Translations under genes and position numbers: made by a program
DNA from: a virus
Taxonomy: Duplodnaviria > Caudoviricetes
Length of the DNA stretch: 64,000 bases
Virus record (IMG/VR): IMGVR_UViG_2706795396_000001
Span: 10,807 to 74,806 of that record
Strand: one strand, 5' to 3'
Part shown: positions 11,101-56,233 of the stretch, one piece after another
Position numbering within the stretch: the first letter of the stretch is position 1
How the letters are laid out: every line of letters starts with the position of its first letter
The notes under the pieces: model-generated
Told to the model about the DNA's origin: nothing
Seen by the model: only the letters and a program-made list of their open reading frames with translations
Database searches by the model: none

Positions 11101-13013
11101 AGAAGATTGAGAACAAGACAAAAAACTTCTCTAAGAATTACTACAACGACTGGCGATCATTAGGCAAAAAGCTTGACAAAAATTGGGATACTGTCTTGGA
11201 TAACATGTACAGTACCACTAGAAACAGCACTAAGAAAATTGTTAACAACATCAACAAGGCTATTAATGGTATTGATTCAGTTGTTGCGCAATTTGGTGGC
11301 AGTAAGTCAGCCATCAAACCAATTAAATTTGCATCAGGTACTGGTGCTTTTGGTTCACTAAGAAGGCCTATTACCAAACCAACGTTAGCAATGCTTAACG
11401 ATGGTAACGACAGCCCTTCAACTGGTAACAAAGAAATTGTATGGAAACCTTCTAAAGGCTCTATGGAATTAATTCATGGTAGAAACGTGATGAGAGTTTT
11501 AGAGCCTGGTGACGAAGTTCTTAACGCTAGCGAAACCAGAGAGCTTTTAAGTGCTCAAGGTATTCAGCACTTTGCAAAAGGTACTGGTGTTACTAAAGCC
11601 TTATATAACGCTGCTGAAAGCTATGTAAACCACCCTATCAAGAAGCTTAACAGTATCTTTACTATTGCTACTGACGGTCTAAAAGGCTTCTTCAAGAACC
11701 TTGGTAAAGGCTTGGAAGAATCAACCAAGAAACAGTCTTCTACTTGGTGGTCAACTCTTTGGAGCATGGCAGGCGAAAAGCTAGACGGTGGCTCTAGCAG
11801 CTATAACGGACTTCTTGAAGCTATGGAGAAGTTCGGGGATGGTCATAAATATGTATGGGGCGCAACTGGACCTTCTACTTTTGATTGTTCAGGCTTGGTA
11901 ATGTATGCCCTAAAGAAAGCATTTGGTATTGATTACCCTCACTACTCTGGTTCACAATATTCAGTTTCTCAACACATTCCTAAGAGTAAGGCTAAGGCTG
12001 GTGACTTGGTATTCTGGGGTAAAGGCGGTAGCGAACACGTCGGTGTATACGCTGGCGGAAACAAGTTCTACTCTGCACAATCACCTTCACAAGGCATCGG
12101 CATGAACACCCTGGACTCTGTTGTGGGTTATGGGGGTCCTTTATTTGCTAGAGTCAGAGGTTTGGGTGCTAAGATCGCTTCCAATAAGAAAAAATCAAAG
12201 GGGTCATCAAACAACCTAAAGAAATTAATCAAGAGTGAAGTTGGTAGTGGCTTCTTTAAGATGATGGAAGCATTGGGCGACAAATACGGCGACAAATACG
12301 GTGACAACGTAGGTGGCACTTTTAGTCCAAGCATGATTCGTGACGCCGCTAAGGAAATGCACGTCAACCCTTCAAGACAGTTCATTAAGAATTTGCAAGC
12401 CGTTATCCAAAACGAATCAGGCGGACGTAACATCGTTCAGCAGATTCATGACATGAACTCTGGTGGTAACGAAGCCCGTGGTATTCTTCAGTTCACACCT
12501 CAAACCTTTAAGGCTTTCGCTGTTAAGGGACATACAAACATCATGAACCCTTACGACCAATTGTTAGCATTCTTTAATAACTCTGACTGGAGAAACTCCA
12601 TTGGTTGGACGACCATTTGGGGAACAAGAAAGATGGATTGGCTACATTCTGGTCCTCAAGGACATAGACGTTACGCTAACGGTGGTATTGCTAAGAGGCC
12701 ATCTATCTTTGGTGAAGAGGGAGCTGAAATGGCAATTCCGTTATCAGACGGTCATAAGACTAAGCGAGAATATGAATTGCTTGGTCAGACAGCAGCTATT
12801 CTGGCCTCAAATGACAAAGCCAACATTAATGCATTAGCAAACAATTCTAATTCAGCAATTGAAGAAAAGTTGGACAAATTGATCGCTTTAGCACAACAAA
12901 TGATTGTTGCTTACGAACAAGTAAAGGTAGCAGTCCCAAGCGACTCTATCGTTCAAGTTGTCAATAAAGCAAATCTTAAAAAGTCAATCCACCAACAAAT
13001 GTACGGTTATTAG
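5130..13013 (+). CDS. Tape measure protein with LysM, NlpC/P60 and lytic transglycosylase domains
   Basis: 2627 aa. Coiled-coil N-terminus; TP901-type core (GIGMEYVASYAHQAGISLEETASALGILSNNGLEAQKAGTGLR); LysM (YTVKSGDTLSSIA, ~9381-9515); NlpC/P60 (YVWGATGPSTFDCSGLV…HVGVY, ~11830-12160); SLT (IQNESGG…GILQF, ~12330-12670). Confidence 0.95.
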   Translation: MADRVGSGAEIKFRVGVDTSTAEKNLRELKKQFRNVNDEMKATDTQLAAAGDTFGLLENDLAHLEAAMKIQKAAVEKAKEEWEKMTKVVTDANGATRRVSDTTNHNANIVARARSEYDKQLVTLKKVSAQYDVIQAKVKVYNSNISELVEKHKAEQSVLEQEVKLAKAQGNETEAQAKQLKLLNKQYSDAVSESKRYEKTLKELKDSGLENTVQYKQQESALKKTQVQMAATKKSISDINASLEHSKLGIEAFNTSMEESEKAFEHALKVSSAYDNSVKQLDKQIEHSKEVQKTLAAEIKRVETAKQNLVKNAAKEKRATIENSDAYRSLSKHLADLEERQASSILQERALVKARKEALVQKTLETTGLKDFNKSFKETEELVKKQIERQRQLKGETSANLKAIELYKAQQEALKKEIGRLTSARGNLAKQGQKESESYKLVNKAIIENQARYTNLAKEIEKANTAIELNNTHVKENEAIAKKHDQIYRELDARFKDFNGTVKANVEQQKHLATQLNDSKAKIKSYKEALVALNKNYKDNEKEISEYELKLEQEKTKYSSLTKKMAEYRSGLVLLRTTQQNVTAINESAYNALKSQGRQYEANYVRIKALKKEHEELTAQLRIEKSLLETTARKSGVSSVAYANQASKVNGIQSRISSNANEANELIKNTALINSTNKRADAIVRLAKKYENLGVVLRGVGVAGVAGLAGLIYLGVQGSKIATDLNNTFTRTKNLIVTSNTETTAEITKNMAKMKRQVKDLASTYGESQKELAEGQQELIKRGYSSGQAVKAFGQYVKAAAATGEDFNEVTQVGAATLEAFDMRQTHTYSNSKKVLNAIAYAADMTASDFKSLGIGMEYVASYAHQAGISLEETASALGILSNNGLEAQKAGTGLRKIISSLTSPTKAAEEALKSVGLKTSDFVNKSGKLKSISQIFGLLAKHTEKISKAKKVDLLHKIFGQTGQNAAGIFLTNAQSALKGTAESVDELTSKVRKAEKNDYIGRLAKKNMNTLQGQLKILKQTWSVTETNFGQDVQPFLKNSVHVAQQVLKAFNDLPRPMRQTIEATTAIGLGFMTLAGAVGVFQKIMSPAVQLLMRFTVHDKAIKDEATGVVSSLSTEGSAVQALTEKYAKLAEEKKLASESYTGSSDVGGAEENVTNAVGDVTEAEKTAKTVTTGEKVAEEASEAAGVATTGKVAKNAEAKGVETVEKFAKGADKASKSASFRAAGRSILGKLFNAGMFVQTGISLVSSIHKSMTGKTANERWKGTGEAVAGSIAASATAYFTGNPILASVAYDVASTGGGALLGNEKVRKTVGKFNSKLDSHTSTYTPYTYSLSTGNVNPNDLNSGNYDSYGAKRLLDKEQKDYEKEQKRKRRLRKAQKVVDRVKTADFNFQESLANAEFEAKYDLSPTKKKIRKTYTVKSGDTLSSIAKKNHTTVSKLAKQNKIVNPNLVLAGKKLKINATIKAKVDAKALAKSIKSSFDSLISSTEKKNKKLQQANKKTIKNLFNSGLISKKTMNKLDKNNANITKSYKKTYSKVKSLTDQYTTALAQGRTKKAKQLKKQLVKEEHTLQTQLLKAQARGNTKLNSSLDTLKRKGYKISKKAALKQVEIATDAANKEIKAAYKTKKKTVQSAENKYKETVKSLKKLRDSHVGFTEDEYKDAVAKAKATKKATVTGAEETYKSSYKYYSKKQKAVVKLATKERKDIKKNLDKSEKYQLVSQKNAKKNLDKFKGSFQKSWDSFWGGLGKSWNDFWSGVGKAFDFHATLKKAIKNTTPSKYQTPKTKATHSGGHYVEAHANGGVAKSGVALVGEAGQELVYSPYSNHARLVGTKGAQFTNLKAGEHILNAKDTARLMSGNYVGKLPAYANGTVQSFAGGSYSLPSVSTGVKGISRLIQKLKSLDRQLRWLSKRIPKEFNKISSSLSDQMGSDGMFGVLRKSTKQLNRFNSATKKFSANIAKIWKNLNKKIVSNTDNTNDKQLDSVKDTLKKIENKTKNFSKNYYNDWRSLGKKLDKNWDTVLDNMYSTTRNSTKKIVNNINKAINGIDSVVAQFGGSKSAIKPIKFASGTGAFGSLRRPITKPTLAMLNDGNDSPSTGNKEIVWKPSKGSMELIHGRNVMRVLEPGDEVLNASETRELLSAQGIQHFAKGTGVTKALYNAAESYVNHPIKKLNSIFTIATDGLKGFFKNLGKGLEESTKKQSSTWWSTLWSMAGEKLDGGSSSYNGLLEAMEKFGDGHKYVWGATGPSTFDCSGLVMYALKKAFGIDYPHYSGSQYSVSQHIPKSKAKAGDLVFWGKGGSEHVGVYAGGNKFYSAQSPSQGIGMNTLDSVVGYGGPLFARVRGLGAKIASNKKKSKGSSNNLKKLIKSEVGSGFFKMMEALGDKYGDKYGDNVGGTFSPSMIRDAAKEMHVNPSRQFIKNLQAVIQNESGGRNIVQQIHDMNSGGNEARGILQFTPQTFKAFAVKGHTNIMNPYDQLLAFFNNSDWRNSIGWTTIWGTRKMDWLHSGPQGHRRYANGGIAKRPSIFGEEGAEMAIPLSDGHKTKREYELLGQTAAILASNDKANINALANNSNSAIEEKLDKLIALAQQMIVAYEQVKVAVPSDSIVQVVNKANLKKSIHQQMYGY

Positions 13014-26927: not shown

Positions 26928-26971
26928 GAGATAAACATCTCTTTCACCACCTGTAATTGGGTGGTGTACAT
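26926..26971 (+). terminator. Tandem hairpin element ending in TACAT after endolysin
   Basis: AAGAGAT-aaac-ATCTCTT, then CACCACC-N8-GGTGGTG, then TACAT. Confidence 0.6.
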
Positions 26972-27004
26972 TTAATTAGAAAAAACAGAAAGAAAGAGGA
27001 AACT

Positions 27005-27982
27005 ATGGCAGTTAGACTTTTTAACGAGCAGGATTGGGAAAATTTATCTGAAGAAAACAGAGAATTGTATGAAGATTACATGTTAAATTTAGAGGCTGAA
27101 GGTAAAGCAAAAAAGACTCGAGACCAATATGGATATGATCTCCGTGCTTTCTTCTGTTACTTGGTGAGAGAGAAGAAAAACAAATATATTCTTGATCTGA
27201 AAAGGAAGGAATTTCGAAATTTTTTCTTAATTTTAAAGCGTTCGGAAGTAAGCAACGCAAGAATTAATCGTTTCCAATCTAGCGTTCGGAACTTGCTTAA
27301 TTACGCTTGTATTTCTGAAGATTACGATTACGACATCAATCAAATGCAATATTTAAAAGGTCTTCAGAAAGAACCAGTCCGTGAAATTGTTTTTTTGACT
27401 GACCGACAAATTAATATTTTGATTGACGAGCTTTTAAAGCGTAAAAAATATCAAAAAGCTCTTTGGGTGTCACTCGCTTACGAGTCGGGTGGTAGAAGAA
27501 ATGAGATTCATCAAATTAAGAAAGATGGTTTTTTAGAAAGAAATCAAACCGAAACCGTAATTGGTAAAAGAGGTAAAAAGTTCAAATTGATTTACTTCAA
27601 TCGTTCCAAAATTATTTATAAATTATGGATGAAACAAAGAGGCGAAGACGACATTCCGAGTTTGTGGATAACTGGCAAAGGAAAAAACAAGCGTCCAATG
27701 ACTTACACGACAATGTATAGTTTTGTAGATGAGCTCAGAGAAATTCTAAAAGAACGTACGGGCAAAGATGTTCCTTTGAACGAGCACAGCTTCCGTCATT
27801 CATGCTTAACGAATTTTTCTGACGGTACTCATCATGTCCTTGAAGAAGTCGGAAAAGACAAGCTAAATCTTCAAATGTTAAAAATTTTAGCGCACCATTC
27901 TGACATCTCAACAACTCAAGGTTACTTACGGGATGACAGCGAAGAGCAATTAGCCAACGCCCTGGGTATCGAATTAAATTAA
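27005..27982 (+). CDS. Tyrosine recombinase (XerC/D-like integrase)
   Basis: Catalytic R (GGRRNE), K, H-x-x-R (HSFRH), H (AHHS) and Y (TTQGY); ATG after GAAAGAGG. Confidence 0.9.
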   Translation: MAVRLFNEQDWENLSEENRELYEDYMLNLEAEGKAKKTRDQYGYDLRAFFCYLVREKKNKYILDLKRKEFRNFFLILKRSEVSNARINRFQSSVRNLLNYACISEDYDYDINQMQYLKGLQKEPVREIVFLTDRQINILIDELLKRKKYQKALWVSLAYESGGRRNEIHQIKKDGFLERNQTETVIGKRGKKFKLIYFNRSKIIYKLWMKQRGEDDIPSLWITGKGKNKRPMTYTTMYSFVDELREILKERTGKDVPLNEHSFRHSCLTNFSDGTHHVLEEVGKDKLNLQMLKILAHHSDISTTQGYLRDDSEEQLANALGIELN

Positions 27983-54653: not shown

Positions 54654-55580
54654 TTAGAATGGTAAATCGTCATTATCCACAGTTACGTTGCCAGAACTTT
54701 GATTACCAGCGTTATCAAACGGGCTCTTCACAGCCCCACCAAATCCTGAAACAGCCGGAGCAACTTCTACAGTGTTTTCGGTTCTTGAGATTTCTTGTCG
54801 AATTTCGTTGATAGCTTCTTGAGCCTGTTCCTCATCGACTTGAATCTTGTTTGATTGAGCACCAGTAATCTGCATGTTGTTTACATAAGAGTTAGGCTTA
54901 ATTTCTTCAACAAAACCAAAACCGTCAGCCGCTTCATCTTGCTTGTCTTCAATTACAGCGTAGTTATTGATCTTGTAACCGATAGTCCATGTTCCCCGCA
55001 AATCCTTTTCATACATGATTGCAGGAGCAACGAAGTCAACCAGCTTGTTGGCCTTACCGTTGTAACCAATGTAGAACCCCTGGACGTCATAAGTATTAGT
55101 AGGTTCACCGTGTTCCATGTGTTCCTTATAGTCACTCACGTAAACATCTAAAGCGCCTACTGCCTTAGGCTTAACAACGTTAGGATCAACTCTAGAGAAG
55201 CTTCTAGCTGACAAACGGTTACTTTCAATAGTTTGACCATTATTATCAGTATATACGTTCCAAGAGATGTCGCCATTTACTCTTGCGTAAGTAGCGTTCT
55301 CAGCGTCTTCGTCCTTAGCAACGTATTCTCTGATGACAGTTTCGAATCCTTCGTAGAACGGGTTTGGCTTACCTGACTTAAATAATTGGCTTTGGTATAC
55401 GTTAACTCTGATATTGTTCAGTTGAACAGAACCGTCTTGTTGAGCAATTGGCACTTCCATAGTAATATAACCACGAATTACTTGCCCACCATCTCTTGCA
55501 GTTGCGTAGTTGATATTCTTGCTCTTTACGTAACCTACAATCTGAAATGAATTAGTGTTAAACTGCTTAATGTTTGTCAT
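54654..55580 (-). CDS. ssb: Single-stranded DNA-binding protein-like
   Basis: OB-like N-terminus (+.G.+..K…G.+..N.Y), acidic tail ending DDDLPF; located in the recombination cluster. Confidence 0.7.
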   Translation of the reverse strand: MTNIKQFNTNSFQIVGYVKSKNINYATARDGGQVIRGYITMEVPIAQQDGSVQLNNIRVNVYQSQLFKSGKPNPFYEGFETVIREYVAKDEDAENATYARVNGDISWNVYTDNNGQTIESNRLSARSFSRVDPNVVKPKAVGALDVYVSDYKEHMEHGEPTNTYDVQGFYIGYNGKANKLVDFVAPAIMYEKDLRGTWTIGYKINNYAVIEDKQDEAADGFGFVEEIKPNSYVNNMQITGAQSNKIQVDEEQAQEAINEIRQEISRTENTVEVAPAVSGFGGAVKSPFDNAGNQSSGNVTVDNDDLPF

Positions 55581-55647
55581 AGTGTTTTACCTCACTAAAT
55601 TATACTATTACATATTACTAATTTATTCTAGGCTTTTGTCAGCCTAT

Positions 55648-55693
55648 AGCGTGCAGAGGAATCGAACCCCTCGATTAAGAACCATCTCACGCT
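55648..55693 (-). ncRNA. tRNA-like minihelix E1 (acceptor + T arm, no anticodon arm)
   Basis: AGCGTG-AGATGGTTCTTAATCG-AGGGG-TTCGATT-CCTCT-G-CACGCT. Confidence 0.7.
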
Positions 55694-55786
55694 GCCTAAA
55701 GTTAAGAAAAGAAATGAGGTAAAACCCAATGCAAATGAGAACATTAGGTTTTAGATAGCTAAAAAATGAGTAAAAAAGCTATCTAT

Positions 55787-55830
55787 CCTATGTCTAGAGA
55801 ATCGAACTCTAGATGAGCACCAGTCATAGG
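55787..55830 (-). ncRNA. tRNA-like minihelix E2
   Basis: CCTATG-ACTGGTGCTCA-TCTAGAG-TTCGATT-CTCTAGA-CATAGG. Confidence 0.72.
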
Positions 55831-55872
55831 CATTGGTCCGTAGACAAATGTAGTAAATCTATAACCACTATT

Positions 55873-55901
55873 ATTATACGATACTATTTTTGATTTGTCA
55901 A
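55873..55901 (-). promoter_or_regulatory. Consensus sigma-A promoter TTGACA-17-TATAAT driving E2-E1
   Basis: Perfect consensus; no ORF immediately downstream. Confidence 0.85.
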
Positions 55902-55957
55902 CGGTCCAATTTAAATCTAGGAGGACTTTTTTGTTCACTATCGTTAACGTGAACTAA

Positions 55958-56001
55958 GACGTGTGGCTGAATCGAACAACCATTTGATGACCACCCACGC
56001 C
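55958..56001 (-). ncRNA. tRNA-like minihelix E3
   Basis: GGCGTG-GGTGGTCATCAAA-TGGTTG-TTCGATT-CAGCCA-CACGTC (two G-U pairs). Confidence 0.7.
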
Positions 56002-56086
56002 CACTAAAGGAGGTTTTCTACGCTATGACAAACATCGGCTTGAAAATAGAAAAGGAGGTACTTAAGCTAGAATTTTAATCTAGCTA

Positions 56087-56158
56087 TCGAGCAAAAGAGA
56101 AATCGAACTCTTATCTTACACTTATAAGGTGTCTGCTCTACCTTTGAGCTATTGCTCG
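56087..56158 (-). tRNA. tRNA-Ile(UAU), with an 8-nt T loop and no encoded CCA
   Basis: CGAGCAA/TTGCTCG acceptor, GCTC/GAGC D stem, ACAC-CTTATAA-GTGT anticodon arm (anticodon TAT), AAGAG-TTCGATTT-CTCTT T arm. Confidence 0.8.
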
Positions 56159-56204
56159 GTTATAGTAAGAGACTACTACGACCATTTGCCCCTTACTGAT
56201 TGTT

Positions 56205-56233
56205 ATTGTACCATCCTTTGATTGCGTTTGCAA
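56205..56233 (-). promoter_or_regulatory. TTGCAA-17-TACAAT promoter driving the tRNA array
   Basis: 17-nt spacer; AAGG upstream as in the other copies. Confidence 0.75.

Follow-up and report, generated by a model that had tools for sequence, protein, structure and literature searches.

Anticodon-less tRNA-like minihelices and start-site antisense segments in the leader of a phage yorF-family gene

The window analyzed here is a 64-kb stretch of a 74.8-kb phage record in IMG/VR, which is complete according to CheckV. On its minus strand, between a 78-codon open reading frame (ORF) and a 308-codon gene of the yorF family, lies a gene-free array that contains a transfer RNA (tRNA) gene for isoleucine and three elements of 45–47 nt, named minihelices A, B, and C. 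Each of them combines an acceptor-like stem with a canonical T arm. Comparison with relatives reveals selection on the minihelices as genuine structured RNAs, and the spacers between the elements carry segments complementary to the Shine-Dalgarno (SD) sequence and start codon of yorF. We propose that the array is a processed, self-regulating yorF leader, in which the tRNA and its mimics would be cut by RNase P and RNase Z and an anti-start RNA would be released or detached. This reading is given a probability of about 0.5; transcription, cleavage, and the sign of regulation are all deduced from the DNA sequence.

Structure and conservation of the minihelices

The coordinates of all features are collected in Table 1. 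In A and C, a 6-bp acceptor stem and a 5-bp T stem flank a mismatch at position 7:66, which is open in 12 of 17 sequences. In all three minihelices the T loop reads UUCGAUU and is closed by a G-C pair, the 3' acceptor strand abuts the T stem directly, and no CCA is encoded. The anticodon arm is absent, as only 11–15 nt, with UGGU and thus a GG like that of a D loop among them, connect the acceptor stem to the T stem. The T arm agrees with that of canonical tRNAs (5-bp stem, 7-nt loop U54-U55-C56-R57-A58, G53-C61), and the loop-closing pair G53-C61 is found in 25 of 25 sequences, while the canonical cloverleaf with D arm and anticodon arm (RF00005) is not formed. The string GTTCGATT occurs six times in the 64 kb. 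Four copies are in the array, within a span of 450 bp, and the minihelix fold surrounds three of these; the other two (45162 and 49230) are inside listed ORFs.

An earlier inspection of the letters alone, here called the sequence-only reading, had placed a tRNA-Ile and three anticodon-less elements of common fold in this stretch. The three elements were located where it had put them, and the fold was confirmed. Its stack of 12–13 bp is correct for B (13 bp) and not for A and C, which have 11 bp plus the mismatch. The ARAGORN and Rfam scan that it had proposed (E up to 10) gave tRNA-Ile as the sole credible call and left the minihelices unseen.

When the 1.1-kb region was compared with phage records at the nucleotide level, no match was obtained, and YorF-based locus searches of viral, genome, and metagenome collections gave no relatives. 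Relatives came from a protein database alone, which provided 48 YorF homologues of 76–91% identity, and 12 contigs were taken from it. The same gene-free leader lies upstream of the YorF-family gene in 11 of these 12 metagenomic phage loci, and the gene-free stretch before yorF measures 240–1100 bp in nearly all relatives.

A covariance model, R1, was built from the elements of seven relatives with the window sequence excluded. It recovers both C and A, and nothing comparable is found elsewhere in the 64-kb window. In the model-fitted alignment, which as a structure-fitted one favours structure, 93.2% of the cells are paired, both sides have changed in 8 of 12 pairs, and the covariation score is 0.573 as compared to at most 0.139 with slid partners. 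Since the invariant loop sets the place of the T stem and a conserved GAUGG anchor that of the acceptor strand, there is little alignment freedom. T stems are paired in 100% of cells, four of the five T-stem pairs compensate, and U54, C56, A58, and G53-C61 are invariant. In the orthologue of A in L008, the entire T stem is replaced by compensating pairs, and B-type elements likewise show pairs altered on both sides among relatives. The covariance check on related phages, which the sequence-only reading had also named, thus speaks for a conserved fold.

Two further pairings were considered for the connector. In C-type elements, the connector could form a D stem of 3 bp (GAU/AUC), which was rejected, as it is not kept in L013, L014, L015, and L018. 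Pairing of connector AAUC with T-loop GAUU, which RNAalifold prefers, is compensated in one case, reduced to a wobble in one, and broken in two, and is ambiguous; the tRNA-like fold is favoured over it because the T stem covaries. Pair 1:72 is A-U, G-U, or G-C, pair 3:70 is C-G or U-A, and the discriminator varies, so a fixed aminoacylation identity is counted against. An alanine identity of A (G3:U70 with a bulged base) needs an alternative register, which breaks the constant pattern of a discriminator followed by UAG.

These observations bear on the idea that the elements are decaying tRNA pseudogenes or tRNA fragments of an attachment (att) site, both devoid of function. The elements do adjoin a real tRNA gene, and the phage has a gene for a tyrosine recombinase (Phage_integrase; 26957–27982), located after the endolysin gene. 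However, both acceptor strands are present and covary, T stems are fully paired across lineages, the same architecture is seen in three types, and C persists without a tRNA in L015 and L018. An attP fragment would comprise the 3' part of a tRNA only and lie next to an integrase; here, the 5' acceptor strand is present as well, the sole recombinase gene is 28 kb away from the array, and despite this gene no prophage relatives of the phage were found among 185,579 representative bacterial genomes. We therefore disfavour this explanation as extremely improbable.

The array is modular, and element C is its universal part. Each relative has one to three minihelices, in the order Ile-A-P2-B-C in the window and L008, Ile-M-C in L007, L009, L012, and L014, Ile-P2-B-C in L016, L017, and L169, and Ile-C in L013, while C stands alone, with no tRNA gene, in L015 and L018. 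Overall, tRNA-Ile(UAU) occurs in 10 of 12 loci. C is present in every relative, 67 nt ahead of the yorF ATG in the window and 70–100 nt before it in the relatives, judged by T-loop position. In the Lactobacillus Tybeckvirinae, the nearest named phages (YorF of about 30% identity), coding sequence replaces the leader, and there is no match to the model.

Some loci show peculiarities. In L018 (1–1700), the leader with promoter, hairpin, antisense, minihelix C, hairpin, SD, and ATGAC is cut off from yorF by an IS605-type OrfB/TnpB gene; in front of the intact yorF, the SD region is present a second time. Two independent metagenome contigs, L170 (1–100) and L171 (1–100), terminate within minihelix C at a distance of 100 nt from yorF, perhaps because assemblies break at the repeated T-arm sequences. 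The tRNA-Ile(UAU) of the window has a T loop of 8 nt (UUCGAUUU), as compared to the usual 7 nt in most relatives, and its acceptor stem begins with C1-G72.

Both strong promoters of the sequence-only reading were found again by promoter scan and are kept in relatives. P1 is retained as GGTTGCAA-N14-TGnTAnnAT, with its leader hairpin at the same place, in all relatives that keep the stretch upstream of the array. P2 recurs in L008, L016, L017, and L169, and in each of them a B-type minihelix follows downstream. Between minihelix C and yorF, no credible promoter candidate emerged from the promoter scan or the sequence.

Table 1. Features of the array and the adjacent yorF-family gene, in the order of the minus strand (window coordinates).
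Feature	Position	Strand	Basis or remark
Promoter P1, TTGCAA-17-TACAAT, upstream TG (extended -10)	56205–56233	-	Promoter scan
5' leader hairpin of predicted P1 transcript	56164–56197	-	-11.3 kcal/mol, z -3.7
tRNA-Ile, anticodon UAU	56087–56158	-	ARAGORN; Rfam RF00005, 50.5 bits
Trailer hairpin, UAG right after tRNA discriminator	56065–56086	-	Folding
Antisense module: anti-SD ACCUCCUUU (ACCTCCTTT), 56051–56059 and 56006–56014; anti-start AUGUUUGUCAUAG, 56023–56035	56006–56059	-	Unique 13-mer; duplex
Minihelix A, GGUGGUC connector, discriminator U	55957–56001	-	Folding; model R1 26.2 bits, E 1e-4
Trailer hairpin after minihelix A	55933–55956	-	Folding
GUCCUCCUAG motif (GTCCTCCTAG)	55917–55926	-	One-bulge complement of UUUAGUGAGG, yorF SD region
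Promoter P2, TTGACA-17-TATAAT, 12/12 consensus	55873–55901	-	Promoter scan
Minihelix B, uninterrupted acceptor/T stack of 13 bp, ACUGGUG connector, discriminator A	55786–55830	-	Folding
Hairpin, 16-nt U-rich loop with CAU	55752–55785	-	Folding
Terminator-like hairpin, U-rich tail	55720–55753	-	Folding and promoter scan
Anti-SD GUUUUACCUCA (GTTTTACCTCA)	55715–55725	-	Exact complement of yorF SD region
Minihelix C, GAUGGUUC connector, discriminator A	55647–55693	-	Model R1 62.6 bits, E 5e-15
Trailer hairpin after minihelix C; would form 5' end of processed yorF messenger RNA (mRNA)	55629–55646	-	Folding
yorF translation start region, SD UGAGGUAAAAC, ATG 55578–55580	55570–55594	-	Putative target of antisense segments
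yorF-family gene, 308 codons	54654–55580	-	PF27337, phrog_2367

Segments complementary to the yorF start

The 74.8-kb genome contains precisely two copies of the 13-mer CTATGACAAACAT, one at the yorF start codon and one, inverted, at 56023–56035. Of the 11-mer TGAGGTAAAAC, too, there are precisely two copies, at the yorF SD and, inverted, at 55715–55725. Together with a neighbouring anti-SD block, the anti-start block lets the spacer that links tRNA-Ile to the minihelix after it pair with the yorF start region in two blocks, and the internal loop between the blocks mirrors the spacing from SD to AUG. The duplex reaches -26.8 kcal/mol in the window (z -5.8 against shuffles) and -19 to -24 kcal/mol in six relatives (z -2.6 to -4.3), i.e., seven of nine loci including the window. 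Antisense blocks are constant across relatives, while the rest of the spacer diverges. In L014, an AUGGCA start variant is absorbed by G-U wobble, and in L013, L015, and L018 the antisense lies directly 5' of C. The GUCCUCCUAG motif is found in every relative keeping that stretch.

The anti-SD and anti-start strings and the loop complement reported by the sequence-only reading could be read at 56006–56014, 56051–56059, 55917–55926, 55715–55725, and 55761–55778 (loop complement). It had assigned them to translation starts of phage or host genes, for example those of defence systems. Complementarity to a ribosome-binding site (RBS) and a start codon stands; the target that can be identified is, by this complementarity, the phage's own adjacent yorF with its SD and start codon, and not a host or defence gene. 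Common strand and promoter positions suggest that yorF is co-transcribed with the array.

One segment stands apart. The hairpin at 55752–55785 is kept in relatives, with a loop of 14–17 nt and U runs around CAU, and the three to four bases ahead of this CAU vary among relatives (ACU, GUU, CAAA, GAA). No complement of the U-rich loop within 3 mismatches was found at phage gene starts when the phage genome was searched. A host target is possible.

On the plus strand, the same segments resemble small ORFs behind SD-like strings, which might encode selected peptides. AAAGGAGG is followed 11 nt on by the ATG of a 17-codon ORF at 56025, and SD and ATG are there in relatives, too. However, these ORFs, read by eye, have 5, 8, 11, 13, or 17 codons in relatives, and common to them are merely the first three to four codons, MT(D/N), which mirror the MTN start of yorF. 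In L008, the SD is degraded and complementarity to the yorF start is retained; furthermore, the neighbouring genes and both strong promoters are all on the minus strand. The mini-ORFs are explained because the mirror image of the antisense copies the SD and first codons of yorF. That they are the translated and selected products, a possibility the sequence-only reading had allowed for as its own undoing, is very improbable, given a length that varies from 5 to 17 codons and an SD that is lost in L008.

Processing of the leader and competing explanations

Among 30 tRNAs and minihelices, the base after the discriminator is U in all 30 and continues as UAG in 27, and a hairpin starts 1–3 nt past the discriminator in all 30. 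The repeating unit of the sequence-only reading, in which a hairpin usually followed an element, can thus be sharpened: the hairpin comes directly after every element. The trailer hairpin after C shows compensatory changes among relatives. On the 3' side, the mimics thus have precisely the surroundings of the true tRNA, which fits a tRNA-processing route. In lactic acid bacteria, precursors devoid of CCA are cut by RNase Z immediately past the discriminator, and in a mapped example the trailer fragment starts with U (PMC8549757). The stack of acceptor and T arm is a known minimal substrate of RNase P (PMC3858429).

In the proposed leader, host RNA polymerase would initiate at P1 and P2 and produce the non-coding leader of a yorF replication-module operon. 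By virtue of the mimic shape, RNase P would read the 5' side and RNase Z the position past the discriminator of a CCA-less precursor. Cutting would yield the tRNA and free minihelices, as well as pieces of about 85–125 nt consisting of a protective 5' hairpin and pyrimidine-rich antisense to the SD and start of yorF; the last cut would create the mature yorF mRNA, again with a 5' hairpin. In Firmicute RNA decay, a hairpin at the 5' end of an RNA resists 5' exonuclease. The antisense segments would repress yorF translation in cis in the uncut leader, in trans once excised, or both. Relief of a cis block and creation of a trans repressor are both compatible with the sequence.

The antisense arrangement could act in cis according to folding of the stretch from 50 nt upstream of C to 15 nt past the ATG: in all 10 loci folded, the SD core is predicted to pair with the spacer ahead of C (P 0.6–1.0). 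Sequestration of the SD by this spacer is no more than suggestive, because shuffled spacers of the same composition already reach an SD pairing of about 0.5 (means 0.2–0.7).

This baseline is one of several points that weigh against the processed, self-regulating leader. The predicted SD pairing exceeds the shuffles by a modest margin, with 3–10% of them matching it in most loci, and the distal antisense of L016 and L017 does not outperform its shuffles. The U-rich hairpin loop is without a target in the phage. Strong duplexes could outlast cutting, so that processing need not lift repression. Action of a bacterial RNase Z on substrates that lack both D arm and anticodon arm is an assumption. 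Finally, the conserved connector (GAUGGUUC..AAUC) exceeds the needs of a bare processing signal and hints at a specific binding partner.

The last point leads to the view that the minihelices themselves are the products, i.e., stable, CCA-tailed, tRNA-shaped RNAs which bind or soak up proteins that recognize the tRNA elbow or acceptor end, the antisense being secondary. Candidate partners are defence toxins modifying acceptor ends, SmpB, EF-Tu, and the CCA-adding enzyme. Type-specific conservation of the connectors (GAUGGUUC..AAUC, ACUGGUG) beyond what structure alone needs would be accounted for in this way, as would three distinct minihelix types side by side and similar elements before different genes in unrelated phages. 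L008 and L141 have sub-threshold Rfam matches to transfer-messenger RNA (tmRNA) on a fold like that of its tRNA-like domain, and defence toxins inspecting acceptor stem and 3' CCA exist, according to a preprint (bioRxiv 10.1101/2024.07.05.602228). On the other hand, acceptor sequence and discriminator vary among orthologues with no constant identity set, the preferred register lacks G3:U70, and the phage encodes neither a CCA-adding enzyme nor a Ro/TROVE partner. The fixed position of C before yorF and the complementarity to the start region are left unexplained as well, and we regard this view as unlikely.

A second view, which we also judge rather unlikely, keeps the cleavage and dispenses with the antisense: the elements would serve as punctuation that shapes RNA ends, providing the tRNA and the yorF mRNA with RNase J-resistant hairpin 5' ends and structured 3' ends. 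It agrees with the hairpins, which begin no more than 3 nt from each site predicted for RNase Z, and with the same layout around the true tRNA. Minihelices also occur in gene leaders of other phages, in a comparison confined to the elements themselves, and plant t-elements act in this manner (PMC1920247). It does not account for exact inverted copies of 13 and 11 nt of the yorF start that are unique in the genome, nor for a two-block geometry that mirrors the spacing from SD to AUG and is kept while the surrounding spacer diverges.

Genomic setting, occurrence in other phages, and known systems

In the window, structural genes are on the plus strand and the replication/early arm is on the minus strand. 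The helicase is 45–50% identical to helicases of Lactobacillus Tybeckvirinae phages, and the endolysin is nearest to lysins of Lactobacillus delbrueckii, johnsonii, and gasseri phages; therefore, the host is probably a Lactobacillus. Annotations of the YorF-family gene in some phages read SSB or replication protein. The stretch at 55581–55628 of the window, which separates the SD from the post-C hairpin, is A/U-rich with UAAU-type repeats, and the matching A/U-rich stretch of L012 and L013 contains AAUAGUU(C) three times at about 2430–2480. It is a speculation, by analogy to T4 gene 32 autoregulation, that such tandem motifs are an operator for an SSB-like YorF.

Beyond the yorF loci, the pattern GATGGTTC..TYCRATTC proved too loose: among the 80 matches listed, 4 scored with the model. 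Thus, at least four unrelated uncultured phage contigs among these matches carry single model-scored elements. Minihelices with the GAUGGUUC connector lie in gene leaders at L020:3207–3253, L067:2105–2146, L057:2534–2576, and L072:12580–12628. In the L020 element, G3:U70 is combined with an encoded ACCA end, features like those of alanine tRNA or tmRNA, and L072 has a second T-arm element nearby, at about 12430–12480.

The B-type pattern revealed one conserved element in 21 prophage contigs, which match the Clostridioides difficile phages phiCD24-1 (LN681534.1 152–432) and phiCDKH01 (MN718463.1 19514–19794). In L146, which matches these C. difficile phages, the non-coding leader of the small terminase gene (2049–2473) contains two anticodon-less tRNA-like folds, one at about 2186–2240 with a short D-like arm and one at 2334–2378 close to the B type of the window (ACUGGUG connector, UUCGAUU loop). 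ARAGORN and Rfam gave no call in this leader.

Our literature search found no description of anticodon-less minihelices in phages. The statement of the sequence-only reading that no named system has this layout is upheld for Firmicute phages and needs qualification otherwise, as C4 RNA and the t-elements of plants come close to it in function. C4 RNA of phages P1 and P7 lies upstream in the transcript of its own target and blocks the RBS region of the downstream gene. The array likewise contains antisense to the RBS of a downstream gene, with co-transcription predicted from strand and promoters, and C4 RNA is the closest precedent for the proposed mechanism. Unlike in C4, where the antisense is in the loops of the tRNA-like RNA itself, it is in the spacers between elements, and at the yorF locus several elements are arrayed with a true tRNA. 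The probable host is Gram-positive, and the putative target is a replication-module gene instead of an antirepressor (immI operon). There is no sequence or Rfam match to C4 (55300–56600, E up to 10). As in the array's proposed processing, C4 is a tRNA-like phage RNA cut from its precursor by RNase P, according to PMC3858429, which cites Hartmann et al. (1995).

For a role in punctuation, plant mitochondrial t-elements are the closest precedent. They are tRNA-like folds with the T-arm motif GGTTCRANYCC, some of them without D and anticodon domains, and mark 5' and 3' ends of mRNAs via RNase Z and RNase P (PMC1920247, PMC3858429). The array has a comparable layout, i.e., a T-arm motif and an acceptor-like stem within a longer predicted transcript beside a gene. 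In contrast, t-elements are organellar, unrelated in sequence, and not coupled to antisense, and their transcript ends have been mapped experimentally, whereas those of the array are predicted.

The tRNA-like domain of tmRNA resembles the minihelices in its acceptor stem, T arm, stemless D-loop analogue, and missing anticodon arm. The array differs by the absence of an mRNA-like domain, pseudoknots, and a tag reading frame; ARAGORN finds no tmRNA, relatives reach 17.5 and 14.1 bits as compared to the 47-bit threshold of RF00023, and 3:70 is C-G or U-A in place of G3:U70 in the preferred register. YrlA, a bacterial Y RNA, is also non-coding with a tRNA-like module; RNase P cleavage and addition of CCA are known for some of its members, and phages encode some (PMC4201824). 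The array differs from YrlA in that a Ro-binding stem and an adjacent Ro60 (TROVE) gene are absent, with no TROVE domain in the 74.8 kb and no Rfam match. The yorF array is thus outside the C4, t-element, tmRNA, and YrlA families.

In the tRNA-miRNA-encoded RNAs (TMERs) of murine gammaherpesvirus 68 and the MALAT1 mascRNA, a tRNA-like element is followed by hairpins, and cleavage by tRNase Z or RNase P frees a neighbouring small RNA. These systems differ from the array in being eukaryotic and in using full cloverleaf-like mimics, and their products are microRNA precursors or a long RNA matured at its 3' end.

Taken further, the array might be one instance of a large unannotated class, in which Firmicute phages use programmable mimics of the tRNA top half to recruit RNase P and RNase Z and carve antisense against their own start sites and a hairpin-capped mRNA from one leader. 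We put this forward tentatively, with somewhat less than even confidence. If it is true, essential host enzymes of tRNA maturation would be put to use by the phage for cutting its own transcripts and adjusting how strongly a replication gene is expressed, and a concrete, testable job could be given to small phage RNAs that escape tRNA finders and Rfam. A 45-nt module that defines RNA ends in Gram-positives could serve engineering. For annotation, minihelices are currently invisible or liable to be labelled pseudo-tRNAs, and part of the tRNA islands of phages may be processing signal and not decoder.

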